NCBI GenBank assembly: GCA_964503465.1
Contig: CAZCYZ010000001.1
Location: forward strand, 195,731-259,730
Length of the DNA stretch: 64,000 bases
Direction of reading: 5' to 3'
Source: an uncultured Gammaproteobacteria bacterium
GTDB taxonomy: Bacteria > Patescibacteriota > Microgenomatia > UBA12405
Positions 11,746-54,927 of the stretch are shown in pieces (positions within the stretch are counted from its first letter, which is position 1; the number at the start of each line of letters is the position of its first letter). Both the position numbers and the translations under genes were made by a program. The notes beneath the pieces are model-generated. The model was given only the letters and a program-made list of their open reading frames with translations, was not told the DNA's origin and searched no databases.

Positions 11746-11784
11746 TATTTTAAAAATCAAACTTATAAATTAGAAATTAAATTA
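11746..11784. repeat. AT-rich repeat motif, copy immediately upstream of rpsJ
   Basis: tattttaaaaatcaaacttataaattagaaattaaatt. Confidence 0.6.
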
Positions 11785-17960: not shown

Positions 17961-18000
17961 CTCCCTGCCCTGTCAAGGGAAGGGTGGGGGAAGGGTTTTG
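17961..18000. repeat. G-rich hairpin element, copy 1 (CCCTGCC..TCAAGGGAAGGG + GGGGGAAGGGTTTTG)
   Basis: Shares the CAAGGGA(G/A)GGG arm and the G-tract+TTTTG tail with copies at 23128, 39714, 40081 and 54887. Confidence 0.6.
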
Positions 18001-23127: not shown

Positions 23128-23182
23128 TCCTCCCTTTCCTCAAGGGGAGGTGTCCCGACAAACGTCGGGACGGAGGGGTTTT
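23128..23182. repeat. G-rich hairpin element, copy 2 (double hairpin CCTCCC..GGGGAGG and TCCCGAC..GTCGGGA, then GGAGGGGTTTT)
   Basis: Same CAAGGGGAGG arm and GGGGTTTT tail as the other copies; lies between the PNPOx-like gene and infA. Confidence 0.55.
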
Positions 23183-24412: not shown

Positions 24413-24441
24413 TATATTTTATTTAGAAATTAAAAATTAAA
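24413..24441. repeat. AT-rich repeat motif, copy immediately upstream of rpsD
   Basis: atattttatttagaaattaaaaattaaa; its 16-mer ttagaaattaaaaatt also occurs at 38591. Confidence 0.55.
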
Positions 24442-37935: not shown

Positions 37936-39009
37936 ATGTCCAAACTTTCGATTGGGATTGTCGGTTTGCCAAACGTCGGCAAATCGACTCTATTTAATGC
38001 TCTCCTTGGCCGAGCAGTCGCCAATGCCAGTAACTACCCTTTTTGCACTATTGATCCCAACGTTGGTGTGGTCGAGGTTCCTGACGACAAATTGCCGATT
38101 CTGGCCGACATTGTTAAAACCACCAAAATAATTCCCGCCATTGTCGAGTTTGTTGACATCGCCGGTTTGGTCAAAGGAGCTTCCCAAGGTGAAGGCTTGG
38201 GTAATAAATTCTTAACCAACATCCGCGACTGTGACGCTATCTGTCATGTTGTTAGAAGTTTTTCCGACCCAAATGTTGTTCGTGAAGGCAGCACCGACCC
38301 TCAAGGTGATTTCGAGGTCATTTCTGCTGAGCTAATTATCAAGGATTTAGAAACCATCGATCGCTACCTTGATACCAACAAAAATAATGCTCTCGAAAAA
38401 AACAGTAAAAAGTTTTTATTAGCCACCAAGTTAAAAACCGAACTAGAGAAGGGGATTCTCGCTGTCAATCTGGGTCTGTCTCAAGAAGAAAAACTTCTTC
38501 TGAAAGAGTTTTTCCTTCTTACCGCTAAACCTTATTTTATTGTTTTCAATGTTGATGAAAACTCATACAAGAATGTTGAAAATTTTAAATTAGAAATTAA
38601 AAATTGCCAAGCTGTTATTCCAGTATGTGCCAAAATAGAATTTGAATTATCCGAAATACCACCCGAGGATCGGCAAAGTTATTTGAAGGAATTAGGAATG
38701 GACAAATCAGGTCTCGAACGCGTTATTCAACAAGCTTACAACACTCTCGGTCTTCAATCGTTTTATACCGCTGGGGTCAAAGAAGTTCGGGCTTGGACCA
38801 TTGCCAAAGGGAGCACTGCACCCCAAGCCGCCGGAGTTATTCACACTGATTTTGAGCGTGGATTTATTATGGCCGAAGTTGTTTCTTATCCCGATTTTGT
38901 CGCCAATCAAGGTTTCGAAGGGGCCAAAGTCAAGGGGTTTTTGCGTCACGAAGGCAAAGATTATATAATGTCCCCCGACGACATCGTCGAGTTTAGGTTT
39001 AATGTTTAA
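37936..39009 (+). CDS. ychF: Ribosome-binding ATPase YchF (Obg-family GTPase)
   Basis: [17 protein letters not shown]1 motif; TGS C-terminal domain. Confidence 0.9.
38580..38606. repeat. AT-rich repeat motif (AAAATTTTAAATTAGAAATTAAAAATT), copy inside ychF
   Basis: Identical 15-mer TAAATTAGAAATTAA also at 1161-1175 and 11766-11780; 16-mer TTAGAAATTAAAAATT also at 24423-24438. Confidence 0.6.
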
Positions 39010-39161
39010 TTTCAAAATGCCTTCAGGTGTTAAAGAAATAGTTCAGAAAGTTAAACTAACCCTCGTAACTGATAATCGACTCCCGATACAAGCTCCCGCA
39101 CCAGACGCTAGTGGTCTCATCAATCAAAAAATAACTTTCGATGAAAACGGAAGATTGAAGG

Positions 39162-40118
39162 ATGTTACCTATGAAACCATCCCTCAAGAAACTTCCTAAG
39201 CTTCTTATTATTTCCGGTCCGACGGCTACAGGGAAAACCGCTTTGGCGGTCAAATTGGCTCAAAAATTTAATGGCCAACTTATTTCTGCTGACTCTCGTC
39301 AAATTTATCGTGGTATGGACGTTGGTACCGGCAAAGACCATCCCACCAACACCCCTATTCACCTTGTTGATATTATCAACCCCAACCAATTATTTTCCGC
39401 CGCTCAATACCACCAACTTGCCCTCAACATAATCCACCAAGTTTGGCAAGCCAACAAGCTCCCAATTATTGTCGGCGGTACTGGTCAATATATCGATGCC
39501 ATTATTAATCCCCAGCCTACCTTTGTTGTCCCACCCAACCACATCTTAAGGTTTTTTCTAAACAGATTCCCCCTATCATTCCTTCAACTTATTTTAAAAA
39601 CTTTGGACTTTAAAACCTTTAACTCGCTCAATCATTCCGATTCCTCCAACCCCCACCGCTTGATCAGAAAAATTGAAATTAATATATCAAATAAAATTAG
39701 CCGCTCCCCCTCCATTCTTCAAGGGAGGGGGATGGGGGGTGGGTTTGACGTTCTCCACATATCGTTAACCGCCCCCAACCAATTTTTGTACCAGCGTATC
39801 GACCAACGTGTCGACCAAAGACTCAAACAAGGCCTATTTGACGAAATCAAAATTTTAATCAGAAAATATCACTGGTCCGACCCAGGCCTCAACTGCCTTG
39901 CTTACAAAGAATTCAAAACTGGTTTTACTCAAAAAAATGTTGACACTTGGCGGTTTCACGAACACTCCCTGGCTCGCCGTCAAAAAACATGGTTCAAAGC
40001 TCAACCTAACATCAATTTCATTGACATTACCAAACCAAATTTCGAACCACAAATAATTGCCTTAATTTCTAACTTTATTTCCCCCCTTCTTCAAGGGGGG
40101 AAGACAGGGGGGTTTTGA
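39162..40118 (+). CDS. miaA: tRNA dimethylallyltransferase
   Basis: LLIISGPTATGKTALAVKLA P-loop, ADSRQIYRGMDVGTGK; contains G-rich hairpin elements in-frame at 39714-39756 and at its 3' end (40081-40116). Confidence 0.85.
   Translation: MLPMKPSLKKLPKLLIISGPTATGKTALAVKLAQKFNGQLISADSRQIYRGMDVGTGKDHPTNTPIHLVDIINPNQLFSAAQYHQLALNIIHQVWQANKLPIIVGGTGQYIDAIINPQPTFVVPPNHILRFFLNRFPLSFLQLILKTLDFKTFNSLNHSDSSNPHRLIRKIEINISNKISRSPSILQGRGMGGGFDVLHISLTAPNQFLYQRIDQRVDQRLKQGLFDEIKILIRKYHWSDPGLNCLAYKEFKTGFTQKNVDTWRFHEHSLARRQKTWFKAQPNINFIDITKPNFEPQIIALISNFISPLLQGGKTGGF
39714..39756. repeat. G-rich hairpin element, copy 3 (inside the miaA ORF)
   Basis: ccgctccccctccattcttcaagggagggggatggggggtgggtttg; translated in-frame as SPSILQGRGMGGGFD. 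Confidence 0.6.
40081..40116. repeat. G-rich hairpin element, copy 4 (3' end of miaA)
   Basis: ccccccttcttcaaggggggaagacaggggggttttg supplies the last codons and stop of miaA. Confidence 0.6.
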
Positions 40119-41122
40119 TGGTACAATCAATCATGAAACCTCAACGGGTCGAAATTTCCTACAAAACCATTGTCTTTACTGTAGTTTTTCTCATTGCTCT
40201 TTATGTTCTCTGGCAGGTCAGAAGTCTAATTTATCTTATCCTTTTTTGCTTTGTTTTCATGGAAGCTCTCAACCCTACTGTTAGCCGACTAGAATCCCTC
40301 AAAATTCCCCGCCCTTTTGCTATTCTTTTCCTTTATGCAGTCATTTTGGGCTTTTTCTCCTTCACCATTGCTGGAGTTTTCCCCATATTGGTTGAGCAAA
40401 CTACCAGTCTCATCAAAACCCTTCCCGGCACCTTAGAAAATCTCAACTTTTTTGGCGTCTCCGCCGTTGACCTATCATCTCAACTCAAAATTGTTGAGGG
40501 TCTGCCCGAAAATATTGCCAAAACCGTCATCTCTCTCTTCTCCAATATTTTTTCTGCTTTTGTCATTCTTGTCATTACCTTTTACCTTCTGATGGAAAGG
40601 AGGAATATTGCCAACTATGGCTTTCATCTTTTTGGTACTTCCGGCAAACAAAAAACTATTGAGATTCTTGAACAGCTTGAAAACCGTCTTGGTAGTTGGG
40701 TCAACGCCGAAGTTTTTCTAATGATAACTATTGGTCTTCTTTCGTATCTTGGTTATCTTCTTCTTGGTCTTAACTATACTGTTCCCTTGGCTATTTTGGC
40801 AGGGATGCTTGAAATTGTCCCCAATATCGGGCCAACTGTTGCTACTGTTGCTGCCGCCTTAGTTGGATTAACTATCTCCCCCTTGGTGGCCGTTCTGGCT
40901 GTAGTTTGGGGGATCATTGTTCAACAAGTCGAGAACAACTTCATCGTTCCGCGGGTAATGAGGTCAACTGTCGGTCTTAACCCTCTAGTCACTATTCTTC
41001 TTTTGGCCACTGGTGCCAAGCTAGGTGGAGTAGTTGGAGCCGTCTTGGCTATCCCTGTCTATCTTACAGTTGAAACTATTTTCAAAGTTGTCACCCAACC
41101 CCCCGCCAGGAGCAAAAAATAA
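40115..41122 (+). CDS. AI-2E family transporter (UPF0118/PerM-like)
   Basis: 8-TM protein with LEIVPNIGPTVATVAAALVGL motif. Confidence 0.8.
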   Translation: MMVQSIMKPQRVEISYKTIVFTVVFLIALYVLWQVRSLIYLILFCFVFMEALNPTVSRLESLKIPRPFAILFLYAVILGFFSFTIAGVFPILVEQTTSLIKTLPGTLENLNFFGVSAVDLSSQLKIVEGLPENIAKTVISLFSNIFSAFVILVITFYLLMERRNIANYGFHLFGTSGKQKTIEILEQLENRLGSWVNAEVFLMITIGLLSYLGYLLLGLNYTVPLAILAGMLEIVPNIGPTVATVAAALVGLTISPLVAVLAVVWGIIVQQVENNFIVPRVMRSTVGLNPLVTILLLATGAKLGGVVGAVLAIPVYLTVETIFKVVTQPPARSKK

Positions 41123-41123
41123 C

Positions 41124-41395
41124 TTCAGAGAAGTCGATAAGCCGAATTCTGTTTTTGGGTCATCAATCTATTCTCCCCACCTGAAGCTCTCAAAGGCTAG
41201 ATTTTAACGCTTCAATTTGAGATTTCCACCAAGGGGTTGCTCGTTTCATCTCTCCCGACGTAACGTCGGGATACTCGTCTCTGTAGCAGAGCCCACAGGT
41301 CACCCCGTTTCCGCCGCGGCGGCCCTTGTGCCTTTAGTGGTTCGGACTTTCCTCCCGTCAACTGACGGGTCAACCCTTCCACTTCTCCGAAGTTA
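41124..41395 (-). ncRNA. rnpB: RNase P RNA (reduced bacterial form)
   Basis: Minus strand contains the P4 strands GGAAAGTCCGAAC (revcomp of 41340-41352) and ACAGAATTCGGCTTAT (revcomp of 41137-41152); GC-rich, structured; about 270 nt; boundaries approximate. Confidence 0.7.
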
Positions 41396-41404
41396 TCCTA
41401 TTTT

Positions 41405-41438
41405 ACCAAATTAAACCCCCCCGAGTTCATCGAGGGGG
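41405..41438 (-). terminator. Intrinsic terminator (CCCCCCGAG-TTCA-TCGAGGGGG) for the zinc-ribbon gene
   Basis: Hairpin followed on the minus strand by TTTAATTT; same hairpin type as the one at 49921-49941. Confidence 0.55.
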
Positions 41439-41459
41439 ATAGTTTCAATTCAAAAAATC

Positions 41460-41615
41460 TTATTTAGTTGACAAGATTTTGAACATGCCAGTGCCACAGT
41501 CAGGACAAACTGCCTTGGCTGCAGGTCGACCATTTTTTAGGCTGGTCTTCTGGACTTTACCATCGTCAACTGACTTTGACGATCGGCATTTGACGCAATA
41601 GAAACTTATTGCCAT
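41460..41615 (-). CDS. Small zinc-ribbon protein (51 aa, CxxC...CxxC), not in the ORF track
   Basis: Minus-strand ATG preceded by the strong SD AGGAGGT (revcomp of 41619-41625); MAISFYCVKCRSS...AVCPDCGTGMFKILSTK; followed by a minus-strand terminator hairpin at 41405-41438. Confidence 0.55.
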   Translation of the reverse strand: MAISFYCVKCRSSKSVDDGKVQKTSLKNGRPAAKAVCPDCGTGMFKILSTK

Positions 41616-41792
41616 TCTACCTCCTGATAAAATTATTAACGTAATACATCCCCATTATTGCTCCCATAGAGACAATACTCAACAGGAAGCTTCTTAATAG
41701 ATCTTTTTTAACCCAACTAATCTGATCATCCATGTCATTATTCATGCCTTCAAAGCCAATATAGCACATTACTTTGTTACAATCTAGATATC

Positions 41793-42170
41793 ATGACCTC
41801 GATTATTTTTTCCTTCTGCCTCATTAATTTTTTTGGCATAGTTTATTTGATTTTTCTTTTTTATCAAAAAAATCGCTTCTCTACCACCAAATCTGCCACC
41901 ACTTCCTTGCCTGCTTCCCTGTCTTCCTCCGCCAAGGTTGGACTTACCCGCTATAACCCTTTTAATGACCTTGGGGGTGATCAAAGTTTTATTCTTTGTC
42001 TGTTGGACAATCAAAATTCTGGTGTTATCATTACTTCATTGCATAGCCGCAGTCATACCAGGATCTATGCCAAACAAATTAAAACCGGCCAGACCTCTGG
42101 GGTTACTTTGTCTCCGGAAGAGAAACAAACTCTAACCGAAACCATCAAAAAATATGAATCAAAACACTAA
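41793..42170 (+). CDS. Small membrane protein, hypothetical
   Basis: N-terminal TM helix; overlaps the start of the DUF3048 gene by 17 nt. Confidence 0.4.
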   Translation: MTSIIFSFCLINFFGIVYLIFLFYQKNRFSTTKSATTSLPASLSSSAKVGLTRYNPFNDLGGDQSFILCLLDNQNSGVIITSLHSRSHTRIYAKQIKTGQTSGVTLSPEEKQTLTETIKKYESKH

Positions 42171-43404
42171 AATTGTCATTACCGCCATTGGCCTGTTTTT
42201 AATTATTGCCGGTCTGTCATACATTGGTTTCAATCATTTTTTACCATCAAAGGGTCTGTCTATTATTCCACAAAAAACTAACTCACCCTCGACCACTCCA
42301 GCGGTCACCAAAACCGGCTTTATTACTTTTGAGGGGCCAAAAACCGAAACTTGCCCTCTTAATGGCGCCCTGTATACCACTGAAGAAAAAAACCTTTGGT
42401 CTACCAAAAGACCACTAACGGTTATGATCGAGAACCATGCTGACTCACGGCCGCAGTCTGGACTTGATAATGCCGATGTTGTTTACGAGGCCGTCGCCGA
42501 AGGCGGTATAACCCGTTTTATGGCCGTTTATTATTGCGCGGTCCAAAAGGGCGCTCCCAATCGTTATGATGTTGGTCCAGTTCGCTCTGCCAGAACCTAC
42601 TTTCTTGACTTGGCTTCTGAGTATTCCGACTATCCTTTATACACTCATGTTGGGGGGGCCAATTGTAGTGCCGCTACTCCAGGTGGACCGTGTACCACCA
42701 ATCGCAAAGCTCAAGCCATCGAACAAATATCCTCCTACGGCTGGAACAACAAAGGGACCTGGGGTGATTTGTCCCAGTTCTCCTTGCCCTATAAGGTCTG
42801 TCGCCGCGAACCCGAACGCACCGGCGACGTCCGTGATACCGAACACACCATGTACTGTTCTACTAAGGAGCTTTGGCAAGTTGCCTCCGATCGTGGTTTA
42901 ACCAATTTGACCCAAATTAACAAAAATTCCTGGGACAAAAATTTCAAACCCTGGGGTTTCAAGCAAAAAGATCAAGCCATCGCTGTTCCTAAAGCCAAAA
43001 CTATCTCCTTTGATTTTTGGCCAGGTTACAAGGACTATTCCGTCAGTTGGCTGTATCAACCCGCTACCAACACTTACGCTCGTTCCAATGGGGACAAACC
43101 CCATCTTGACTTTAATACTGGTGAGCAGTTAACCGCCAAAAACATTATCATTGAATTTGTTAAACAAACCCGAGGTGTTGACGAACATGGTCACAACCTT
43201 TACGAAGTCATCGGTAGTGGCAAGGGTTATCTGTTTCAAAATGGTGATAAAATAGATATTACTTGGACCAAACCCAGTCGTGCCTCCAAAACTGTTTTCA
43301 AAGATTCCAGCGGTAAGGAAATAAATTTTGTCCCAGGTACTATTTGGGTTGAGATCGTTCCAAAAGAGAACCCAGTTAATTATGAAGATCCAAAACAACC
43401 TTAA
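42154..43404 (+). CDS. DUF3048 domain-containing secreted/lipoprotein (YerB-like)
   Basis: N-terminal TM/signal anchor; VMIENHADSRPQSGL...YEAVAEGGITRFMAVY matches the DUF3048 N-domain. Confidence 0.7.
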   Translation: MNQNTKIVITAIGLFLIIAGLSYIGFNHFLPSKGLSIIPQKTNSPSTTPAVTKTGFITFEGPKTETCPLNGALYTTEEKNLWSTKRPLTVMIENHADSRPQSGLDNADVVYEAVAEGGITRFMAVYYCAVQKGAPNRYDVGPVRSARTYFLDLASEYSDYPLYTHVGGANCSAATPGGPCTTNRKAQAIEQISSYGWNNKGTWGDLSQFSLPYKVCRREPERTGDVRDTEHTMYCSTKELWQVASDRGLTNLTQINKNSWDKNFKPWGFKQKDQAIAVPKAKTISFDFWPGYKDYSVSWLYQPATNTYARSNGDKPHLDFNTGEQLTAKNIIIEFVKQTRGVDEHGHNLYEVIGSGKGYLFQNGDKIDITWTKPSRASKTVFKDSSGKEINFVPGTIWVEIVPKENPVNYEDPKQP

Positions 43405-43975
43405 ACGACTCTTTGTTTCCCGCACCCGTCTCAAACTGATCCAAATTTTCTTCTACCACCCCCAAAACTTTAGTTATGTCCGTCAACTGGTTCGTCTCAC
43501 CGGAGAGGAAATCAATTCCATTCGTCGAGAACTTTTTAATCTTAAATCTGCCGGAGTTATTCTGTCAGAAAGTCGGGCCAACAAACTCTATTATTGGGCC
43601 AATCCCGACTCCCCCTTTTTTTTGGAATTACTTACCCTCGCCAACCAAACTGTTGGTTTGGGCTTGGCTCTCTACGATCGTCGTGATCAGCTGCTCGGTC
43701 TAAAAAGCTTACTTTACTCCCAACGTTTTGCCGCCGGTGGTCCAGCCGTTTCTAATAGTGTTGATTTGATTTTAATTGGCGACATTGCCCCTCGGGAAAT
43801 CGAACCTCTCATCAAGGACGAAGAACAGCGTCGGGGACGGGAAATCAACTACATGCTTATGCCTCGTTCAGAATACAAACTTCGCCGCCAAAAAAGAGAT
43901 CCATTTATTGTCGATTTCTTTCTTGACCACCCTCTTCTTATTATTGGTACTCCCAAAGATATTACTTTTTCTTGA
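43385..43975 (+). CDS. Winged-helix (ArsR-like) transcriptional regulator with C-terminal domain of unknown function
   Basis: RLKLIQIFFYHPQNFSYVRQLVRLTGEEINSIRRELFNLKSAGVI wHTH; start at the ATG at 43385. Confidence 0.5.
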   Translation, partial: KIQNNLKRLFVSRTRLKLIQIFFYHPQNFSYVRQLVRLTGEEINSIRRELFNLKSAGVILSESRANKLYYWANPDSPFFLELLTLANQTVGLGLALYDRRDQLLGLKSLLYSQRFAAGGPAVSNSVDLILIGDIAPREIEPLIKDEEQRRGREINYMLMPRSEYKLRRQKRDPFIVDFFLDHPLLIIGTPKDITFS

Positions 43976-44175
43976 TGCCAAATCTTCGAAAAATCATTAA
44001 AACCGGGAATAGCCTTTGTCTTACTATTCCATCTATCACCATCAAGGATTTTGATATCCACGAAGGTGATTTAGCCATTTGTTCCATCAATCGTTCCCAT
44101 TCATCTATCACCTACGTTTTTACTGGTCACCCACGCCAATTGTCCTTGATTGACAAAAAGGCTTCTAAAAGTTAA
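43975..44175 (+). CDS. AbrB/MazE/SpoVT-family DNA-binding protein (antitoxin-like), translationally coupled to the upstream regulator
   Basis: IIKTGNSLCLTIPSITIKDFDIHEGDLAI swapped-hairpin motif; ATGA overlap with the upstream stop. Confidence 0.55.
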   Translation: MPNLRKIIKTGNSLCLTIPSITIKDFDIHEGDLAICSINRSHSSITYVFTGHPRQLSLIDKKASKS

Positions 44176-44186
44176 AGTCAGCTGAT

Positions 44187-45521
44187 ATGCCGTCCCTTCG
44201 ATCCACCAAGCAAATTTTTTGGATAATTGTTGGAATTACGTTTATATCCCTGATTATCAACATGCCCGCCAAACTTACTGTTTTTGGTAAAACCTTCTAT
44301 CGCCCCGATTTTAATTTTAAAATTGCCAACTTTACCTTCAAAAAGAATCTTGATCTTCGTTATGGACTTGATCTATCTGGTGGTGCTTCTTTAATTTTCG
44401 AAATTGACACCAAGGATCTCAAAAAGGACGATCTTAATAGCGCCATCGAGTCACTCAAGGCCAATATTGAACGTCGGGTCAACCTTTTTGGTTTAAGTGA
44501 ATCAACTGTTCAGATTTCTTCCAAAGATAATAACTATCGCCTCAATGTTGATCTTCCTGGTCTTACTAATGTTGACGAAGCTATCAGTCTTATTGGCCAA
44601 ACCGCTCAACTGGAATTTAGAGGAGTTGTTGACCTGCCTCCCGAAGCCACCGCTACTGCCAAAATCGAAGATGTTCTCAAAGATATCGGACTCAATGGTT
44701 CCCATCTTGTCCGCTCCACAGTTCAAATCAATCCCAACAACTCCAAACCCGAAGTTGGCTTGGAGTTTAATTCATCCGGAACCATTGCTTTTGAAAAGGC
44801 TACCAAAGAATTCTTGGACAAAAAAATCGCCATTCTTTTGGATAATCAAATTATCACCGCCCCGGTAGTTCAAACCGTTATTTCCGATGGTAAAGCCGTC
44901 ATTAATGGTAATTTTGATATTAAATCTGCCAAGGCCTTATCAGCCCAGCTCAATGCCGGGGCTCTCCCTTTGTCTATCAAGCTTATTCAACAAACTCAAG
45001 TCGGAGCCACTCTTGGTCAAGATTCGATCAATAAAGGTATCAAGGCCGCCCTCGTGGGCTTAGCCCTCGTTTGTTTCTTTATGATAGGTAACTACGGTTT
45101 TCCTGGTTTGATAGCTGATATCGGTCTAATTATTTATGGCCTAATCACCCTTAGTCTCTACCGACTCATCCCCGTTACCCTTACGTTTCCAGGTATAGTT
45201 GGTTTCATTCTTTCTGTTGGTATGGCCGTTGATAGTAACATTCTTGTTTTCGAGAGAATGCGGGAAGAAGTTCGTCGAGGTAAACCGTGGAATGTGGCTA
45301 TGGAACTAGGCTTTGGTCGGGCCTGGGACTCCATCAAGGATGCCAATGCCTGTACCATTATCACCGGCCTCATTCTTCTTAACCCATTCAATTGGAGCTT
45401 TCTTAATACTTCGGGCATGGTCCGCGGTTTTGCTGTTACCCTACTCTTGGGAATCATTATTAGTATTTTTACTGGCGTTTTTGTTACTCGTAATTTATTA
45501 CGTGTTTTAGCCAAAAAATAA
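44187..45521 (+). CDS. secD: Protein translocase subunit SecD
   Basis: LGLDLSGGASLIFE and the C-terminal 6-TM SecDF domain. Confidence 0.9.
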   Translation: MPSLRSTKQIFWIIVGITFISLIINMPAKLTVFGKTFYRPDFNFKIANFTFKKNLDLRYGLDLSGGASLIFEIDTKDLKKDDLNSAIESLKANIERRVNLFGLSESTVQISSKDNNYRLNVDLPGLTNVDEAISLIGQTAQLEFRGVVDLPPEATATAKIEDVLKDIGLNGSHLVRSTVQINPNNSKPEVGLEFNSSGTIAFEKATKEFLDKKIAILLDNQIITAPVVQTVISDGKAVINGNFDIKSAKALSAQLNAGALPLSIKLIQQTQVGATLGQDSINKGIKAALVGLALVCFFMIGNYGFPGLIADIGLIIYGLITLSLYRLIPVTLTFPGIVGFILSVGMAVDSNILVFERMREEVRRGKPWNVAMELGFGRAWDSIKDANACTIITGLILLNPFNWSFLNTSGMVRGFAVTLLLGIIISIFTGVFVTRNLLRVLAKK

Positions 45522-45531
45522 TTCAATCGCT

Positions 45532-46389
45532 ATGAACATCATGAAGTTAAGACCATTGTTTTTTGTTTTATCGGGATTTTTACTGGGTCTTTCTTGTTTT
45601 TCTATTCTTAAATGGGGTTTTCGTCCTTCAATCGACTTTGTTGGTGGCACTATTTACGAAATCAAGATCCCTTCTGTAGACCAATCAAAAGTCGAAAATA
45701 TTTTCAAAACTCAAAACATAACCCTTGGTTTTATTTCCCACACCAACGACACTTTTATTCTCAAGTTTCAAAACATCAGTCAGGAACAAAAACTTGCTCT
45801 TCAGTCAGAGTTCAAAAAACTCAACCCCGATCTCGTTGAACTTCGTTTCGAAACTCTCGGGCCTACCTTGGGTCAGGAACTCCTCCGTAAGACAATTATT
45901 GCCATTATTTTGTCCTCCCTCGCCCTTCTGATTTTTATTGGTAGTCGTTTTCATGATTTTAGTTTCGGCTTTTCTGCAGTTTTGGCTATGTTTCATGATT
46001 CGCTAATTCTTTTGGGCGGTTTTTCCCTTTTAGGTCATTTTTTCGGAGCCGAGCTTGATGCACTTTTTGTCACCGCCCTCCTTACTACTCTTTCTGCTTC
46101 CGTTCACGATACTGTCGTTACCTTCGACCGCATTCGTGAGCTCAAACAGCAGCATTTCCAGGTCGACTGGGTTAATCTTGCCAACCGTGCTGTCACCGAA
46201 GTTATTGTTCGCTCCATTAACAATTCCATGACCATCATCTTTATGTTGTCGTCTTTGGTGGTCCTCGGCGGTTCTACCACCCGTTGGTTTGCCCTTGCTC
46301 TGTTAATTGGAGTCGTTTCTGGTACTTATTCCTCCACTGCCGTGGCCATTCCCTTAGTCCTTTTTTGGAAAAAAAGGTCAAAAAATTAA
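45532..46389 (+). CDS. secF: Protein translocase subunit SecF
   Basis: SIDFVGGTIYEIK, 6 TM. Confidence 0.9.
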   Translation: MNIMKLRPLFFVLSGFLLGLSCFSILKWGFRPSIDFVGGTIYEIKIPSVDQSKVENIFKTQNITLGFISHTNDTFILKFQNISQEQKLALQSEFKKLNPDLVELRFETLGPTLGQELLRKTIIAIILSSLALLIFIGSRFHDFSFGFSAVLAMFHDSLILLGGFSLLGHFFGAELDALFVTALLTTLSASVHDTVVTFDRIRELKQQHFQVDWVNLANRAVTEVIVRSINNSMTIIFMLSSLVVLGGSTTRWFALALLIGVVSGTYSSTAVAIPLVLFWKKRSKN

Positions 46390-48128
46390 TGCGACCAATT
46401 CACTGGCTTTTTGTTTTTTTCATTTCTATTTTTTCGATTTTCATCCATTCTCGGCAAATTCTTGTCAACCCTCCATCCCTTTTTTCCGACGAGGTTGATG
46501 CCGGTTATCAAGCCTTTGTTTTCAATTCTTGCGGTAACGACTATTTTGGCAACAAATTCCCCACCCATTTTCAGTCATTTTCTGACTGGCGCACTCCTCT
46601 TTACATTTACAGCGTCTCTTTAGCCCAAAAACTCCTTGGTCCCACCGAAACTTCTGTTAGGCTTCCCAGCCTCATCTTCGGCCTCCTTAGTATTCTTGTT
46701 TTCTCACTTATTATTCACCATATTTTTCAAAGTCAGCTTGCTTTCATCATTTCGTTTGTTGTTCTCTCTCTCAATCCCTGGCTTTTTCACTACAGTCGTA
46801 CTGCTTTTGAAGCTACTGGTATGATTCTTTCCCTTTTGCTGGCGATCTACCTTTGGCTTCTCTACCTTCAAAAACATCAACTGTCTCGTCTTCTCTTGTC
46901 AGTTGTCTTTTTTGCCGCTTCTTTTTATTTTTACGCCACTGCCAAGCTGTTTGTTTTGACACTCGTCTTCCCTATTTTCCTTATCTGGCGATCAAACTTT
47001 CTAAAATTACCTCGCGTTCATCTTTTTGTTGCTGTTGTTATTGCCTCTGTTATTGCCACCCCTCTTGTCGTCGATACCATCAAAGGTAGGGCCGGTTTCC
47101 GTTTTTCTTACATTAGCATCTTTACCGAGCCAACTTTATCGACTTCAGTTGATTATGCCCGTTATCAGGATTTACCTGTCGGCAGTCTGGATCAGGTTGG
47201 TCTTAGTCCTAATTTAACCACCAAGTTTTTTCACAACAAAATTAGCCACACCTTTACTACTTTCATTCGTAACTACATTTCTGCTTTTTCTACTGACTTT
47301 CTTGTTCTTCGAGGGGATAGTAATCTTCGTCAGGGTTTTGGGGAAAAAGGTAACTTTTACTATCTTGACCTAGTATTTTGTCTTGTTGGTCTTGTTTTTG
47401 CTTTTAGTCAACCTAACTTATCAAAATACCTTTATTTCTTTCTCTCTTTTCTTTTGTTAGCTCCAGTTCCTTTCGCTCTAACTCGTGATGTCACCTCCCC
47501 TCAAAGTACCCGGTTAATCTTAATGCTTATCCCTTTAATGTTTTTTATTGTTCTTGGAATTATGGCTATTATCAAACTTGTTCGCAGTCGTTTTATTTGG
47601 GGTCTGTTGGGGATATTATATCTTTTAGAATTTTCTAGTTTTATCCATTATTACAATCACCACTATCCTTTACTTTCAGCTCGGTCCTGGCATTATGGCA
47701 TGAAGACTGCTGTCCTTGATACCACCCCTCTTTCGGGTCAATTTGGCAAGATTTTTTATGGCAGCGGCAACGAACCGTTTTTACCTTTCTTCTACTTTTA
47801 CACTCATTATCTTCCTAGCAGTGCCAGTTGTAATCCGGTTCTCGATACCAAGAACTATTCTGATTCATATTTTTCAGGGAAAGTCGTCGAAAACAAATTC
47901 TTTTTTGGTCCACTTGAATGGAGTAACTTGGTTGCCAATGAACCAATTCTTGACCAGTATCTCTTTGTCATCTCAAGTCTTGAGTTATCACGTCTCAATG
48001 ATTTTCTTAATCATTCCAGCACTCATCGTGGTTACAAAATTAGTTATCAGCTTTTAAAACAACCCCTCAAGATTTATCCCGACCAGGAAGTTTATTACTA
48101 TCTTCAGTTCCAAAAGAAGCCAGTTTAG
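46389..48128 (+). CDS. GT-C fold glycosyltransferase (ArnT/PMT, family 39-like)
   Basis: Polytopic membrane protein with an N-terminal-loop DE motif (SDEVDAGYQAF); start at the ATG at 46389 (TAATG overlap with secF). Confidence 0.65.
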   Translation: MRPIHWLFVFFISIFSIFIHSRQILVNPPSLFSDEVDAGYQAFVFNSCGNDYFGNKFPTHFQSFSDWRTPLYIYSVSLAQKLLGPTETSVRLPSLIFGLLSILVFSLIIHHIFQSQLAFIISFVVLSLNPWLFHYSRTAFEATGMILSLLLAIYLWLLYLQKHQLSRLLLSVVFFAASFYFYATAKLFVLTLVFPIFLIWRSNFLKLPRVHLFVAVVIASVIATPLVVDTIKGRAGFRFSYISIFTEPTLSTSVDYARYQDLPVGSLDQVGLSPNLTTKFFHNKISHTFTTFIRNYISAFSTDFLVLRGDSNLRQGFGEKGNFYYLDLVFCLVGLVFAFSQPNLSKYLYFFLSFLLLAPVPFALTRDVTSPQSTRLILMLIPLMFFIVLGIMAIIKLVRSRFIWGLLGILYLLEFSSFIHYYNHHYPLLSARSWHYGMKTAVLDTTPLSGQFGKIFYGSGNEPFLPFFYFYTHYLPSSASCNPVLDTKNYSDSYFSGKVVENKFFFGPLEWSNLVANEPILDQYLFVISSLELSRLNDFLNHSSTHRGYKISYQLLKQPLKIYPDQEVYYYLQFQKKPV

Positions 48129-49434
48129 TCAGCAGTACCTCCCGTTCATTTAACTTTGGATCTTTCTCTACTTCGGCAAAAATATTATCAAGAATTTCAC
48201 CAATTTTTCGCCCTGGTCCAATCTCTAGCGCCTTCATCACATCATGGCCATCGATTTTAAGATCTTTGACTGAAAATGGTTGTTTCTGAACTTCAACCAA
48301 TCTTTTTTTAAACAATTCCCAACGCCAACTAGTTTCACTGGCGCCACTCCCCACCCTGTCTGCCCTTCTTAGGGCAATCATCTCTTCGAGGTACTCCGGT
48401 GTAACATTGCGGATAAATCGTCTGACAGCACTATCTGTTTGCATCTCGCTGGCCGTAAACATGTGCCACCTTACCAGCCTAAACAATTGATCTAATTCTT
48501 TGTTTGATAATCGCAATCTTTTTCCTATCGCCATTGCCACTCTTGATCCTATTACTTCGTGATTATGAAAGGTTCTTGCCTCACCCTCACCTTGCATCAC
48601 ACTTGGCTTAGCCACATCGTGAAGCAGTGCTGCTAACCTAGTTACCGGATTGTTACTTTGACAATTATTAAGGGATTCTATTAAATGTTCCCACACATTA
48701 AACACATGATGTCCTTTTTGCGCCACCCCCACCCCTGTCAGTACTTCTGGTAATATTTCTGTCAACAAGCCACTGTTTTTCAATAGCTTCATCCCATCCC
48801 CGGGTGTTGGTGATAGTAGAATCTTAAATAACTCATCTCGGATTCGTTCTCCAGCAATTTCTTTGATCAATTTGGTATTGTTGGTTATCGACACAAAGGT
48901 CGCTTCTTCTATCGTAAATCCAATTTGTGACGCGATCCTGATTGCTCTTATCATTCGTAAGGCATCCTCTCCAAATCTTTCGTCTGGATTACCCACTGCT
49001 TTTATTAGTCTCTTTTTTAAATCACTTTCCCCGCCGTACAAATCAACAATTTCACCGTTTAACCCCATTGCCAGGGCATTAATTGTAAAATCCCTTCTCT
49101 GTAAGTCTTCCTCCAAACTCTCCCCCCAATGGATATTGTCCGGGTGTCTTCTGTCCGAATAACCCTGTTCAGTTCTAAAAGTTGTTACCTCAAATACTTC
49201 CTTATCCTCCATTACTATTCCCACTGTCCCAAATTTATTGTCATAAAAACTATTTTTAGGAAACAGTTTTTGAATTTCTTCTGGTTTTAAGTTTGTCGTA
49301 AAGTCCCAGTCTTTAACCTCTCTGTCCATCAGTAAATCTCTTACTGCTCCTCCCACCACATAAATCTCCGCCCCCGCGGCCTCAAATTTGTCTATCAGTT
49401 TTCTTACCTTCTCTGGTAGGACAATCTTTCCCAT
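48067..49434 (-). CDS. cca: CCA-adding enzyme / poly(A) polymerase family nucleotidyltransferase with HD domain
   Basis: GGAVRDLLMDREVKDWDF head domain; RRDFTINALA; C-terminal HD (HDVAK). Confidence 0.85.
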   Translation of the reverse strand: MGKIVLPEKVRKLIDKFEAAGAEIYVVGGAVRDLLMDREVKDWDFTTNLKPEEIQKLFPKNSFYDNKFGTVGIVMEDKEVFEVTTFRTEQGYSDRRHPDNIHWGESLEEDLQRRDFTINALAMGLNGEIVDLYGGESDLKKRLIKAVGNPDERFGEDALRMIRAIRIASQIGFTIEEATFVSITNNTKLIKEIAGERIRDELFKILLSPTPGDGMKLLKNSGLLTEILPEVLTGVGVAQKGHHVFNVWEHLIESLNNCQSNNPVTRLAALLHDVAKPSVMQGEGEARTFHNHEVIGSRVAMAIGKRLRLSNKELDQLFRLVRWHMFTASEMQTDSAVRRFIRNVTPEYLEEMIALRRADRVGSGASETSWRWELFKKRLVEVQKQPFSVKDLKIDGHDVMKALEIGPGRKIGEILDNIFAEVEKDPKLNEREVLLTKLASFGTEDSNKLPGRDKS

Positions 49435-49516
49435 AGCCTATTTTACATCCTTTCGGTGTCGCACTGACTGATCCCTTTTGTGATAACATTAGACAACTTA
49501 ATAATTTGATAAAACT

Positions 49517-49903
49517 ATGTCAAACATTGTTGAAGTTAGGATCAGAGATTATATTCCTGAAGAGGCAAACCAAACAATTGCAACCGAGTTTATGGGAGCT
49601 CTGAATACCGCCGAACAACAGTTTATGGACGAACAACAATTAAACCTAGGACCTATTGTTGCTCTCCTTAATCGCAACATAAATTCCCCGAAGGACTACG
49701 AAGTTGCTCAAGCAATGGTTAAAGCCTATCAAACAGCGGCTGACTTATATCACGCTCAAGGTAGTCAACTTTATCAGGATGACTTCATTTCACAACAAAG
49801 GGTTGACTTTCGACTTCACGCCCTCCAAGCGGCTATGGCTATATCGGGTCTACCAAGCTACTCCCGGACCGATTTTCAAACATCTCAAATCCCTCAGCTT
49901 TAA
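49517..49903 (+). CDS. Hypothetical protein (128 aa)
   Basis: Intact ORF followed by the terminator hairpin at 49921-49941. Confidence 0.4.
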   Translation: MSNIVEVRIRDYIPEEANQTIATEFMGALNTAEQQFMDEQQLNLGPIVALLNRNINSPKDYEVAQAMVKAYQTAADLYHAQGSQLYQDDFISQQRVDFRLHALQAAMAISGLPSYSRTDFQTSQIPQL

Positions 49904-49914
49904 TTCGAGACAAC

Positions 49915-49946
49915 CAAAAACCCCCCGAGCTTGTCGAGGGGTTTTA
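49915..49946. terminator. Bidirectional intrinsic terminator between convergent genes (CCCCCCGAG-CTTG-TCGAGGGG)
   Basis: Hairpin flanked by A-run upstream and T-run downstream. Confidence 0.6.
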
Positions 49947-49970
49947 GTTTCTAACTTGAATTTCTTCAAA

Positions 49971-50237
49971 TTAAGCTTGTGGTTTATCAGGTCGGGGCAA
50001 GGCCTCTTTGACGGCGATGTTTCTTCCATCCTGTTCGGTTCCATCCAAAGCTTTCATAGCTTCAGCGGCCGCTTCTTCAGTCTCAAACTCCACAAAGGCA
50101 AAGCCCTTGCTTCGTCCGGAGAACTTATCTTTAACCACTACTGCCGACACAATGGTCCCAAATGGGGCGAATATCGCCTGCAATTGGTCGTCGGTCATGT
50201 TGTAGGACAAATTTCCTACGAATAGTTTTTTAGCCAT
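49971..50237 (-). CDS. RRM-domain RNA-binding protein
   Basis: RNP-2 LFVGNL and RNP-1 KGFAFVEF motifs. Confidence 0.9.
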   Translation of the reverse strand: MAKKLFVGNLSYNMTDDQLQAIFAPFGTIVSAVVVKDKFSGRSKGFAFVEFETEEAAAEAMKALDGTEQDGRNIAVKEALPRPDKPQA

Positions 50238-50338: not shown

Positions 50339-51931
50339 GTGAAACTTGTTTTGCGTTCTAACACTCTTATTGACAGTCGCTATTCTTCCCATCAGCTTCA
50401 GGACTTGCTTCTTAGTCTTCGCCATCTTGAACTTAAGCCAGTAATACCATCATTTTCCCTCCCAAAGATCAGTCTTGACCCCTCCCAGTCAATTCTTATC
50501 TATGGTGACTACGATGTTGACGGTATCACCGCTACCGCCATTCTTTGGCAGGCATTATCCCGTCATGGCCTCCGGGTTACTCCATTTATTCCCCATCGAG
50601 AGCATGATGGTTATGGCTTCAAGGCTGATAGTTTTTTCCGGTTTCAGCAAGAAAAGGGGATTACTTTTGACACTTTAATTACTGTTGACAACGGTATTGT
50701 TGCTATCTCTGAATTCAAAAAACTAAAAAACATCAAAATTATCGTTGTTGACCACCACTTGGCTGATGCCAATATTGACAATCTACGGTCTATGGTTGAT
50801 AGCCTAATCCATAGTCCCGACTTATCAGCTGCTGGTTTGGCTTACTTTATTGCCCAACAATTTGATCCTCATCCTGATCTTGGTTTAGCCGCTTTGGGTA
50901 CCGTCGCTGACTGTTTGCCACTTTTGGGAGTCAATCGCTCAATTGTTTATCATGGCCTTAGACAGTTGCGTCTCAATCCTTCCCCCGGTATCAAGAAACT
51001 GATCGACGTTAGCCGAGCCAAAATTGACTCTCTTTCGACCTATGACCTCGGTTTTCTTCTTGGACCACGCATTAACGCTGTTGGTCGTTTATCCGACTCC
51101 ATGGATGCTCTCCGGCTCCTTTGTGCCTCTAACCTTGCCACTGCTGGTAAATATGCCACTGTTTTGAATCAGCACAACCAAGATCGCCAGATCCTTCAGC
51201 AACGGGACCTGGTCAGCGCCGAAGAACAGATTGTAAGGGCGGACCACGGTGTCCGCCCCACCTCCATTTTTGTCACCGGTGACTACAACCCCGGTATTAT
51301 TGGCCTCATCGCTGGTCGTCTCACCGAAAAGTATTACCTACCTTCAATTGTCATCGCCCTAAACGGTGACGTTGCCAAGGGTTCTTGTCGATCCATCAAA
51401 GAACTAAACATAATTGAAACTCTCCGCCAAACCTCCGATTTGTTGGTTGACGTTGGTGGCCACCCCGCAGCTGCGGGATTTAGTATCAAGACCATTAATA
51501 TCCCTAAGTTTCAACAAAAGATTACCAACATTGTCAATCAAAAACTCAATTCCCAAATTCTTGAACCAACTCTGGAGGTCGATGCTGAAATGAAACTCGT
51601 GGCAGTTAACGTCAACAATATCAAAGTCATTAAACAATTTGAGCCTTTCGGTGTTGGTAATCCTGAACCACTATTTTTGTTCAAAAATATTCGGGTAGTT
51701 TCCAAGAAATTATTGGGTACCAACCAAGACCACCTCAAGCTAAAACTTGATGATCCAGAAACCCAAAAGATAGAAAACATATCCACCGATGCTATTGCTT
51801 TCAAAAAAGGGGACTATGATGCCAAAATAAAAGTGGGGGATTTAATATCCCTGATTGCCAAGCTTGATCTTAATATCTGGAACGGCATCACCATTTCTCA
51901 GCTTGTTGTTAAAGACATAATTTTGGAATAA
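50339..51931 (+). CDS. recJ: Single-stranded-DNA-specific exonuclease RecJ (DHH/DHHA1), GTG start
   Basis: ILIYGDYDVDGITATAIL, VDHH motif, GGHPAAAG DHHA1. Confidence 0.85.
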   Translation: MKLVLRSNTLIDSRYSSHQLQDLLLSLRHLELKPVIPSFSLPKISLDPSQSILIYGDYDVDGITATAILWQALSRHGLRVTPFIPHREHDGYGFKADSFFRFQQEKGITFDTLITVDNGIVAISEFKKLKNIKIIVVDHHLADANIDNLRSMVDSLIHSPDLSAAGLAYFIAQQFDPHPDLGLAALGTVADCLPLLGVNRSIVYHGLRQLRLNPSPGIKKLIDVSRAKIDSLSTYDLGFLLGPRINAVGRLSDSMDALRLLCASNLATAGKYATVLNQHNQDRQILQQRDLVSAEEQIVRADHGVRPTSIFVTGDYNPGIIGLIAGRLTEKYYLPSIVIALNGDVAKGSCRSIKELNIIETLRQTSDLLVDVGGHPAAAGFSIKTINIPKFQQKITNIVNQKLNSQILEPTLEVDAEMKLVAVNVNNIKVIKQFEPFGVGNPEPLFLFKNIRVVSKKLLGTNQDHLKLKLDDPETQKIENISTDAIAFKKGDYDAKIKVGDLISLIAKLDLNIWNGITISQLVVKDIILE

Positions 51932-54886: not shown

Positions 54887-54927
54887 TCCCCTCCTTTTTT
54901 CAAGGGAGGGGTTAGGGGTGGGTTTTG
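54887..54927. repeat. G-rich hairpin element, copy 5 (bidirectional terminator between convergent genes)
   Basis: ccctcctttttttcaagggaggggttaggggtgggttttg; four G-runs G3-A-G4-TTA-G4-T-G3. Confidence 0.65.

Follow-up and report, generated by a model that had tools for sequence, protein, structure and literature searches.

A probable BoxC/PIT-type triplex repeat in frame within the miaA gene of a bacterium of the candidate phyla radiation

Among the repeats that could fold a single DNA strand into a triple helix, class II purine-motif intrastrand triplex motifs are defined by the order of a pyrimidine arm, a purine arm, and a reverse-Hoogsteen arm (Holder et al., 2015, PMC4666352). Their G/C-rich family TMECO, earlier termed BoxC or PIT elements (Hoyne and Maher, 2000, 2002), occurs in Escherichia coli and other Proteobacteria and follows the pattern CCCTCNCCC N3-6 GGGNGAGGG N3 GGGNGAGGG with TTA or CCG as the second loop (PMC4666352). 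As a single-stranded oligonucleotide, TMECO forms a stable triplex by circular dichroism and nuclear magnetic resonance; in vivo, the triplex was not detected (PMC4666352). PIT elements stop DNA polymerase in vitro and showed no promoter or terminator activity (PMC4666352). In E. coli K-12, TMECO repeats are reported to be "always" intergenic and without strand bias, sometimes forming inverted pairs, and their loci vary more between strains than control loci (PMC4666352); by our own reading of Table 1 in that report, eight single copies lie on the leading and five on the lagging strand. The BoxC/PIT/TM repeats are abundant in many bacteria and fold convincingly in vitro, yet they have neither an assigned function nor a known route of spreading. 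Here we describe a three-armed repeat, probably of this type, in a 64,000-nucleotide stretch of contig CAZCYZ010000001.1 (assembly GCA_964503465.1; hereafter the window), where two of its five copies lie within miaA, the gene for tRNA dimethylallyltransferase.

Repeats inserted in frame into coding sequences are also known, namely RPE, BRE, BOX, and RUP (PMC3184786). The Rickettsia palindromic elements (RPE; Ogata et al., 2000) resemble the repeat described here in being dispersed palindromes of a reduced genome, located both between genes and in frame, where the host open reading frame (ORF) stays intact and the additional peptide forms a loop or a C-terminal extension. Compared by description, RPE are longer (100-150 nt), whereas our repeat spans about 40 nt, is defined by a mirror third arm, and is concentrated in one gene. 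Both the triplex architecture and in-frame repeat insertion are known, and the repeat does not represent a new kind of system. A triplex-type repeat within coding sequence, a variant with a hairpin as loop, polarity to one strand, and a concentration in miaA were not described in the literature searched, and the exact word CAAGGGAGGGG matched only unrelated eukaryotic primers there.

The five copies in the window all lie on the plus strand, with none on the minus strand (Table 1), as detected by a structural finder requiring three arms of at least 8 nt each with at most one mismatched triplet. No copy was found in 100 dinucleotide shuffles of the window, and a loose consensus matched the window three times versus 0.01 matches expected. 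The copies are 33-51 nt long, have diverged from each other, and share a common layout, in which a C-rich arm is followed by a loop mostly ending in TCA(A), the G-rich complement of that arm, a short second loop (frequently TTA), another G-rich arm, and a T run. The second G-rich arm mirrors the first in all five (GGGAAGGG and GGGAAGGG, AGGGGAGG and GGAGGGGT, AGGGAGGGGG and GGGGGTGGGT, GGGGGG and GGGGGG, and AGGGAGGGG and GGGGTGGGT in copies 1 to 5, respectively), and an A in the first purine arm is answered by A or T at the mirror position of the third arm. Scored for the canonical triplets G*G.C, A*A.T, and T*A.T, the copies reach 6/6, 7/8, 7/8, 8/9, and 9/10. Their pyrimidine:purine (Y:R) stems of 6-10 nt contain no or one mismatch and are predicted to fold as DNA with -7.4 to -15.9 kcal/mol (z from -1.2 to -3.8), copy 3 with -13.1 kcal/mol (z = -2.8) as single-stranded DNA. 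In copy 2, for which z is -3.8, the second loop is itself a small hairpin, GTCCCGAC AAAC GTCGGGAC. Both loops of copy 3 (6 and 3 nt) are inside the 1-6 nt ITxF range, the first loop of copy 4 (8 nt) only inside the 0-10 nt of Hoyne and Maher, and the second loop of copy 2 (21 nt) inside neither.

Table 1. Locations of the repeat copies and of related features; "window" refers to positions of the analyzed stretch, other labels to loci and contigs of the comparison and metagenome sets
Feature	Locus	Position	Strand	Details
miaA (tRNA dimethylallyltransferase)	window	39162-40118	+	318 codons; Pfam IPPT E = 1.7e-42; hosts copies 3 and 4
Copy 1	window	17963-17995	+	intergenic, rplE/rpsN gap; CCCTGCCC / TGTCAA / GGGAAGGG / TGG / GGGAAGGG; 7/8 canonical triplets
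Copy 2	window	23129-23179	+	intergenic, upstream of infA (ATG 23188); CCTCCCTT / TCCTCA / AGGGGAGG / hairpin / GGAGGGGT
Copy 3	window	39706-39744	+	in frame in miaA; 9/10 canonical triplets
Copy 3, Y arm	window	39706-39715	+	CCCCCTCCAT
Copy 3, loop 1	window	39716-39721	+	TCTTCA
Copy 3, R arm	window	39722-39731	+	AGGGAGGGGG
Copy 3, loop 2	window	39732-39734	+	ATG
Copy 3, mirror (reverse-Hoogsteen) arm	window	39735-39744	+	GGGGGTGGGT
Copy 4	window	40081-40116	+	miaA 3' end; 6/6 canonical triplets; finder: 40079-40114
Copy 4, C arm	window	40081-40086	+	
Copy 4, first loop	window	40087-40094	+	
Copy 4, G arm	window	40095-40100	+	
Copy 4, second loop	window	40101-40106	+	
Copy 4, third arm	window	40107-40112	+	
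Copy 4, tail	window	40113-40116	+	TTTT, then miaA stop TGA 40116-40118
Copy 5	window	54888-54923	+	between convergent genes, 17 nt past the stop of the D-Ala-D-Ala carboxypeptidase gene; CCCCTCCTT / TTTTCA / AGGGAGGGG / TTA / GGGGTGGGT, then TTTGTTTT
45-nt insertion block	window	40074-40118	+	TTTATT, copy 4, TTTTGA; gives the last 14 codons FISPLLQGGKTGGF and stop TGA 40116-40118
Relic of the ancestral miaA end	window	40119-40136	+	TGG TAC AAT CAA TCA TGA (W Y N Q S stop), in frame downstream of the new stop
AI-2E family transporter gene	window	40133-41122	+	Pfam AI-2E_transport E = 2e-53 from the 40133 start; MKPQRVEISYKT...
Copy in cca	L045	10355-10385		in frame, antisense in minus-strand cca
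Copy in cca	L048	18426-18456		in frame, antisense in minus-strand cca
Copy in cca	L034	19362-19391		in frame, antisense in minus-strand cca
Copy in cca	L042	14270-14309		in frame, antisense in minus-strand cca
Copy in cca	L046	18269-18308		in frame, antisense in minus-strand cca
In-frame copy, CPR-like contig	L161	6908		
In-frame copy, CPR-like contig	L192	1510		
In-frame copy, CPR-like contig	L165	3332		
In-frame copy, CPR-like contig	L182	2142		
In-frame copies, CPR-like contig	L112	52, 328		
In-frame copies, CPR-like contig	L120	303, 490		
REP-like palindrome	L018	10509		
REP-like palindrome	L021	5990		
REP-like palindrome	L028	10500		
REP-like palindrome	L010	10703		
REP-like palindrome	L043			
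REP-like palindrome	L046	10760		
REP-like palindrome	L065			
REP-like palindrome	L068	10721		

The initial annotation, made from the window alone, had reported a G-rich hairpin element in miaA. A hairpin is indeed present, but it is part of a three-armed mirror repeat of the BoxC/PIT/TMECO type rather than a plain hairpin, and the interval proposed for copy 3 (39714-39756) omits the 5' C arm and overruns the 3' end by about 10 nt. The interval proposed for copy 4, forming the last codons and the stop of miaA, was accurate. That both copies reside within an intact 318-codon ORF is borne out by the reading frame and its translation.

The comparison set consisted of 77 orthologous miaA loci and two closer relatives, P0002 and P0003; 80 loci (L001-L080) were taken from species-representative genomes encoding MiaA relatives, and the contigs of P0002 and P0003 were added. 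The class II arm order was found in the five window copies, together with the stem and an antiparallel mirror arm, and in 52 copies of the related loci; two E. coli K-12 TMECO repeats reach 9/9 canonical triplets by the same scoring. Among hairpins picked without regard to their downstream sequence, asymmetric R arms in the related loci are followed downstream by a mirror copy in 18 cases and by a direct copy in only three, while upstream neither is found. The mirror relation is kept even where the second loop is a hairpin, as in copy 2 and in the GGGGAG-[hairpin]-GAGGGG arrangement of several orthologues. Template copying gives direct or inverted repeats, never mirror repeats. The mirror match across diverged copies therefore presumably does not stem from template copying but points to a constraint on the folded structure.

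The repeat shares with TMECO the three-arm order, the allowed triplets, a TTA second loop in many copies (also in copy 5), the excess over shuffled sequences, hypervariable host loci, and, in metagenome contigs, face-to-face pairs. In E. coli, the most frequent TMECO type, "A mm" (CCCTCGCCCC / GGGGAGAGGG; PMC4666352), has a G in the pyrimidine arm facing the A of the purine arm, and the same "mismatch" occurs in a Shapirobacteria variant (CCCCGCCC / GGGAGGGG / GGGGAGGG; internal miaA loop of L032, L034, and L044). Unlike TMECO, whose arms carry two interruptions (GGGAGAGGG), the arms here have a single A/T interruption (GGGAGGGG), and window arms such as CCCCCTCC/GGGAGGGGG or CCCCCC/GGGGGG do not fit the TMECO consensus. 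Because the architecture is the same and the arm sequence differs, the repeat is not a copy of TMECO. It also differs in residing in a host of the candidate phyla radiation (CPR; 42% GC), in frame in coding genes, with a hairpin as second loop in some copies and a strong polarity to one strand.

We consider it probable that the element is a BoxC/PIT-type intrastrand triplex repeat, constrained at the level of DNA structure, which entered permissive positions of miaA. The single strand would fold as a Y:R hairpin, on whose R arm the reverse-Hoogsteen arm would lie back through the three triplets scored above. One copy has entered a surface loop of the protein that is predicted to be disordered and another, as a 45-nt block, the position ahead of the last five codons; the encoded peptide would be a passenger and the constraint would act on the nucleic-acid structure. 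The architecture, the excess over chance, the insertions, the intact gene, and the independence of the reading frame are shown by the data; we infer that the fold matters in single-stranded DNA, that these loci share the instability of E. coli TMECO loci, and that the effect of the peptide is neutral.

Across the 1.30 Mb of the window and the 80 loci, a finder requiring 7 nt or more per arm and allowing one mismatch detected 52 motifs versus none in shuffles. Half of them (26) lie in miaA, which makes up about 5% of this DNA; five lie antisense inside cca, the gene for the CCA-adding enzyme, and 21 are intergenic. Similarly, 17 of 22 perfect GC-rich hairpins inside ORFs are found in miaA. The miaA strand carries 49 of the 52 copies. 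By our own count, copies fall at no fewer than 12 non-orthologous positions, always on the same strand. The cca gene of L045 encodes the motif peptide FKPTLPSLKKGGF, where the cca genes of L032 and of the window have no motif. Several plus-strand copies are located between minus-strand genes, beside a separate canonical terminator (L032, L013, L040, and L045), and the orientation is therefore independent of local transcription. Ribosomal-protein operons are usually oriented with the leading strand. With such an operon on its plus strand, the window probably presents the leading-strand sequence, that is, the lagging-strand template, on that strand.

A scan of metagenomes returned more than 120 contigs with the motif, ranging from 31% to 72% GC. 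The scan pattern forced TCAAGGGAGGGGNNNGGGG, so the identity of that part across phyla arises by construction; the complementary C arm and the mirrored third arm count as independent observations, and nearly all matches have them. The motif of high-GC contigs mostly lies a few nucleotides past the end of an ORF, often in face-to-face pairs between convergent genes, as judged from ORF ends and a hand reading of six loci, with shadow ORFs lowering the certainty. Face-to-face inverted pairs 70-110 nt apart, apparently between convergent genes, are seen in L081, L123, L156, L157, L166, and L200 (63-65% GC), where GCGAGCG-N-GCGAGC-like words often follow the motif. In low-GC, CPR-like contigs, the motif lies in frame in either orientation, hosted by genes for alanyl-tRNA synthetase, an MtaB-like methylthiotransferase (radical-SAM), a ComF-like protein, a membrane protein (twice), and an integrase-like protein (twice).

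Several of these placements could be read as an RNA-level signal, with the C/G hairpin of the transcript acting as a terminator, a 3'-end stabilizer, or a switch masking the Shine-Dalgarno sequence, and the miaA copies regulating either miaA or the transporter gene behind it. In favor of this, the Y:R hairpin is stable, intergenic copies have a T run behind the third arm (four copies with TTTTGTTTT), and the motif often sits a few nucleotides past the stop of a co-oriented ORF in high-GC contigs, as in the E. coli hrpB-mrcB spacer, and frequently face-to-face between convergent genes. The third arm contains GGAGG-like words, resembling a Shine-Dalgarno sequence, in copies 1, 2, and 4 and lies 13, 9, and 5 nt ahead of the start codons of rpsN (18009; arm 17988-17995) and infA (23188; arm 23172-23179) and of ATG 40118 (arm 40107-40112), respectively. 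A GC-rich hairpin with a T run further on, often just past a stop codon, resembles an intrinsic terminator. However, the T run does not abut the hairpin but is set off by the third arm of 8-10 nt and its loop, which is not the geometry of an intrinsic terminator, and copies occur inside ORFs and antisense to genes. In Shapirobacteria, the orientation tracks the chromosome strand and not the gene, including the five antisense copies in cca and the several beside their own canonical terminator. An RNA hairpin would have no use for the mirror third arm, RNA does not form purine-motif triplexes (cited in PMC4666352), and the missing terminator and promoter activity of the E. coli PIT elements points the same way. 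No Rfam family matched the motif, in the window at the gathering threshold or in nine loci at E ≤ 1. We regard an RNA-level signal as unlikely, though not negligible.

The motif could also be a strand-polar structural element of single-stranded DNA rather than inert junk, folding on one replication template strand and either moved or copied by a single-strand mechanism or selected as a cis-acting signal; we advance this as a tentative suggestion of low probability. Should it hold, several unrelated families of hairpin repeats would share the two miaA loops as preferred places to land or to be retained, and CPR genomes would offer a natural system for the role of BoxC/PIT-type triplex repeats, a question since the 1990s.

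Four further candidates were rejected. MiaA needs A36-A37-A38 in the anticodon loop of its tRNA substrates; a mimic of that loop for autoregulation of MiaA was discarded, as the first loop (UUGUCAA and variants) has no such triplet and the motif also occurs far from miaA. A promoter -35 box (TTGACA) in the hairpin loop, read on the opposite strand, showed an inconsistent spacing of 18-20 nt to -10-like words upstream of cca. The KOPS-like polar octamer GGGNAGGG is present in some copies only, and the hairpin would be superfluous for it. An association with phages was dropped, with only 11 motif matches in 2.9 million viral contigs.

A G-quadruplex (G4) competing with the hairpin as a G4-hairpin switch, rather than a triplex, could also underlie the G-rich arms. 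Four G runs separated by short loops are present in copies 1, 3, and 5 (e.g., GGG A GGGG TTA GGGG T GGG), and a G4-hairpin-duplex switch has been suggested for the E. coli repeat. G4/C-tract repeats of Methanomicrobiaceae with the same composition exist in an equilibrium of hairpin, antiparallel triplex, and G4 in vitro and switch between triplex and G4 with K+ (PMC8044849). They resemble our element in that G-rich mirror tracts adjoin a C tract complementary to them, and their orientation is not tied to neighboring genes (PMC8044849); they differ in having the C tract on the 3' side (class I order), in being all intergenic, and in their archaeal hosts. Against a G4, copy 4 (GGGGGG N6 GGGGGG), copy 2, and the hairpin-loop variants possess only two G runs, which do not allow a three-layer intramolecular G4, yet keep the mirror. 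The interruption of the third arm is moreover nearly always A or T, mirroring the A of the R arm, which a G4 does not need. We find a G4 switch quite improbable.

The closest named homologues of the window MiaA are those of Candidatus Shapirobacteria, which places the window in a CPR/Microgenomates bacterium. The public gene call begins at 39171 and gives 315 residues with 100% identity. The translation contains SRSPSILQGRGMGGGFDV and finishes with SPLLQGGKTGGF at the stop. An AlphaFold2 model from a 40-sequence alignment has a mean predicted local distance difference test (pLDDT) score of 86.9, with values below 50 only for residues 316-318 and 179-192; the latter, the sole such internal segment, is the motif peptide and is placed between the helix 164-176 and the strand 196-203. 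The best structural matches are 3exa, 3foz, and 2zm5 (TM-scores 0.66-0.78), and all 59 columns invariant among the 40 aligned MiaA sequences are retained, including G19, P20, T21, A22, G24, K25, and T26 of the P-loop. Because the MiaA fold is matched and the invariant columns are retained, miaA is presumably functional and tolerates the additional residues, which are predicted to reside in a disordered surface loop and in the C-terminal tail, off the protein core.

The internal loop (window residues 174-197), flanked by RKIEI and LHISLT, was expected in the initial annotation to be a variable region of MiaA, and it is hypervariable among the 78 species. Of 78 miaA genes, 19 have the intact motif there, and their loops have a median length of 22 residues, compared with a median of 19 and a minimum of 16 residues for loops without a GC-rich hairpin (62 genes by the loop-length test). 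The more distant orthologues either have loops of 16-19 residues free of any GC-rich repeat or contain different repeats. The element replaces about nine codons of a hypervariable stretch instead of adding a net 14 residues. Whether the 14-residue segment is a lineage-specific insertion had been raised as a check; the repeat DNA is absent from 59 of 78 genes, but the segment is a replacement and is common to P0002 (74% identity) and P0003 (68%). Since the loop segments of both relatives consist of the same repeat DNA, the same segment made of non-repeat DNA was not encountered in close relatives.

The motif is read at this loop in all three frames (8, 3, and 8 cases). Nearly the same nucleotides read CAA GGG AGG (QGR, in QGRGMGGG) in the window and TCA AGG GAG (SRE, in SREGVGGG) in L001. 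Selection on the peptide is therefore excluded, and non-coding copies have the same sequence as coding ones. A conserved functional loop peptide (LSREG.G.GF / QGRGMGGG) would be suggested by the similar peptide that many orthologues, some with as little as about 48% identity, have at this position. However, the same DNA yields differing peptides in its three frames, 59 of the 78 species do without the motif, near relatives of carriers included, other species have unrelated repeats at this site, the loop is predicted to be disordered, and identical DNA occurs in non-coding positions; we judge a functional peptide very improbable. The host ORF survives because four of the six frames of the motif are free of stops, because the C and G runs give Pro/Ser/Leu and Gly/Arg stretches tolerated in loops, and because the net change in length is a multiple of three. 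A TTA spacer, the usual one, would produce TAG in the frame that the window copy uses, and this copy has AT instead. An artefact of assembly or sequencing, conceivable for error-prone G and C runs in a metagenome-assembled genome, is scarcely credible, because the independent Logan assembly SRR8925802 agrees with window positions 38973-50118 without a mismatch in 11146 nt and because dozens of independent assemblies contain orthologues with the motif at this site in an unbroken frame.

Species that are otherwise close differ at the internal loop: L052 and L068 share 90% amino acid identity outside it, L034 and L051/L054 89%, and L008 and L022 84%, and each pair has unlike loops, while near-identical motif DNA is common to distant species. 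In a neighbor-joining tree built from MiaA minus the loop, carriers and non-carriers are intermingled, although a single protein of 269 columns cannot settle the origins. The motif also occupies a second site in miaA, located between LAYKEF and W.F.EH, in six species, and GTAG palindromes occupy it in others. At the internal loop, palindromes of the GTAG...CTAC type, which look REP-like, are found in at least four genes by an automatic test and in more by eye, and different or AT-rich heptamer repeats in others. These patterns agree with an unstable locus at which elements are repeatedly gained, lost, or replaced, and the hypervariability of the two sites matches the instability reported near TMECO.

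REP-like GTAGAGACG-N-CGTCTCTAC palindromes lie in frame at the internal loop or the second site of miaA in other Shapirobacteria (Table 1) and encode peptides such as RDAPRGVST and VETPYMASL, and L031 has a "TPRNDVIASEAWQS"-type repeat at the same miaA sites. Unrelated repeat families therefore share the two sites. The AT-rich word AAATTAGAAATT recurs in the window at 1147-1173, 11752-11778, 24417-24438, and 38579-38605 and, as heptamer-like repeats, fills the internal loop of L024, L055, L064, and L069 (peptide KIRNLKLEIRN). A perfect GC palindrome, GGGCGGAC-CACGGT-GTCCGCCC, lies on the plus strand at 51237-51258, in frame in recJ (50339-51931; peptide RADHGVRP), and its family GTAGGGGCGGAC...GTCCGCCC is also present in the internal miaA loop of L068 and at the second site of L003.

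The 3' end of miaA permits a clean comparison of filled and empty sites, as does otherwise only the cca copy. Nearly all orthologues end with KWYNxx and a stop that overlaps the ATG of the AI-2E transporter gene. In the window, this end is replaced by FISPLLQGGKTGGF and a new stop. P0002 (L202), the closest relative, lacks the block and reads ...CAAAAA followed by TGGTACAATCAATCATGA (...CAAAAA, then TGGTACAATCAATCATGAAACC), where the window reads ...TCTAAC, then TTTATTTCCCCCCTTCTTCAAGGGGGGAAGACAGGGGGGTTTTGA, then TGGTACAATCAATCATGAAACC; the 45-nt block therefore sits directly ahead of the retained ancestral end. The 23 nt ATGGTACAATCAATCATGAAACC (40118-40140), which include the relic of that end, are identical in P0002. 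The motif occurs at this position in only one of the 78 miaA genes. P0003 contains a diverged block at the same place, so this insertion is older than the species. Judged from the alignments, both miaA insertions predate this genome, the loop copy being common to P0002 and P0003 and the 3' copy to P0003. The C-terminal tail, for which the same check had been suggested, is indeed an insertion lacking in P0002, but its presence in P0003 makes it older than this genome.

The filled/empty junction (..AAC, insertion, TGGTAC..) shows no target-site duplication, and the insertion has no terminal inverted repeats, the only inverted repeat being the internal Y:R stem. In these respects, the element is unlike a miniature inverted-repeat transposable element. 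With REP/REPIN (RAYT) and IS200/IS605-type elements, it shares a small GC-rich hairpin and the strand bias expected if single-stranded DNA is involved; it differs from them in having no GTAG head, no paired REPIN organization in the CPR loci, and no defined target sequence. No transposase was found, RAYT/TnpA genes not having been searched for. The initial picture of a miniature element able to insert into coding DNA without breaking the frame thus agrees with the dispersed family, its insertion behavior, and the open miaA frame, but active mobility finds no support in diverged copies without target-site duplication or terminal repeats.

All orthologous transporters start with ATGAAACC.. (MKPQR...) at an ATG equivalent to 40133, overlapping the miaA stop. 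The start of the transporter in the window is probably the same ATG 40133, 15 nt past the miaA stop, and not TTG 40115 or ATG 40118. Copy 4 had been thought to overlap the start of the transporter gene, which would need one of these two upstream codons and does not agree with the orthologues. The miaA 3' sequence TGGTACAAT (40119-40127; the W-Y-N codons in orthologues) resembles the extended -10 promoter TGnTATAAT, and TGGTA(C/T)A(A/C)T is kept in nearly all 78 loci, 5-6 nt ahead of the transporter ATG. It may be the promoter of a leaderless or short-leader transcript inside miaA, which would account for the nucleotide conservation of "KWYN".

Several points weigh against a BoxC/PIT-type triplex repeat that entered miaA as a passenger. 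The triplex fold is only predicted here, and even for TMECO it went undetected in vivo (PMC4666352). The TMECO consensus is unmatched, the arms having one interruption and not two. Half of the copies reside in one gene and 49 of 52 on one strand, neither of which a passive repeat predicts. The Shine-Dalgarno-like third arm at three of the five window copies hints at a use at the RNA level. A clean empty site at the internal loop was sought in close species pairs, where the differences turned out as replacement and not as plain presence or absence, so repeated gain is inseparable from ancient presence with many losses.

If the element is nonetheless such a repeat, as we consider probable, BoxC-type triplex repeats, reported in E. 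coli only between genes, can also survive in protein-coding DNA, with the constraint on the DNA structure rather than on the peptide. Gain and loss could be studied on this natural set of filled and empty sites. Annotation is affected as well: in CPR proteins, a Gly/Pro-rich loop "insertion" or an unusual C-terminal tail can be encoded by repeat DNA, and start codons nearby can be miscalled.

An RNase P RNA was identified on the minus strand at 41126-41389; although the rest of the window is bacterial (CPR), the best Rfam model for this RNA is the archaeal RF00373 (121.5 bits, with the gathering score at 84).

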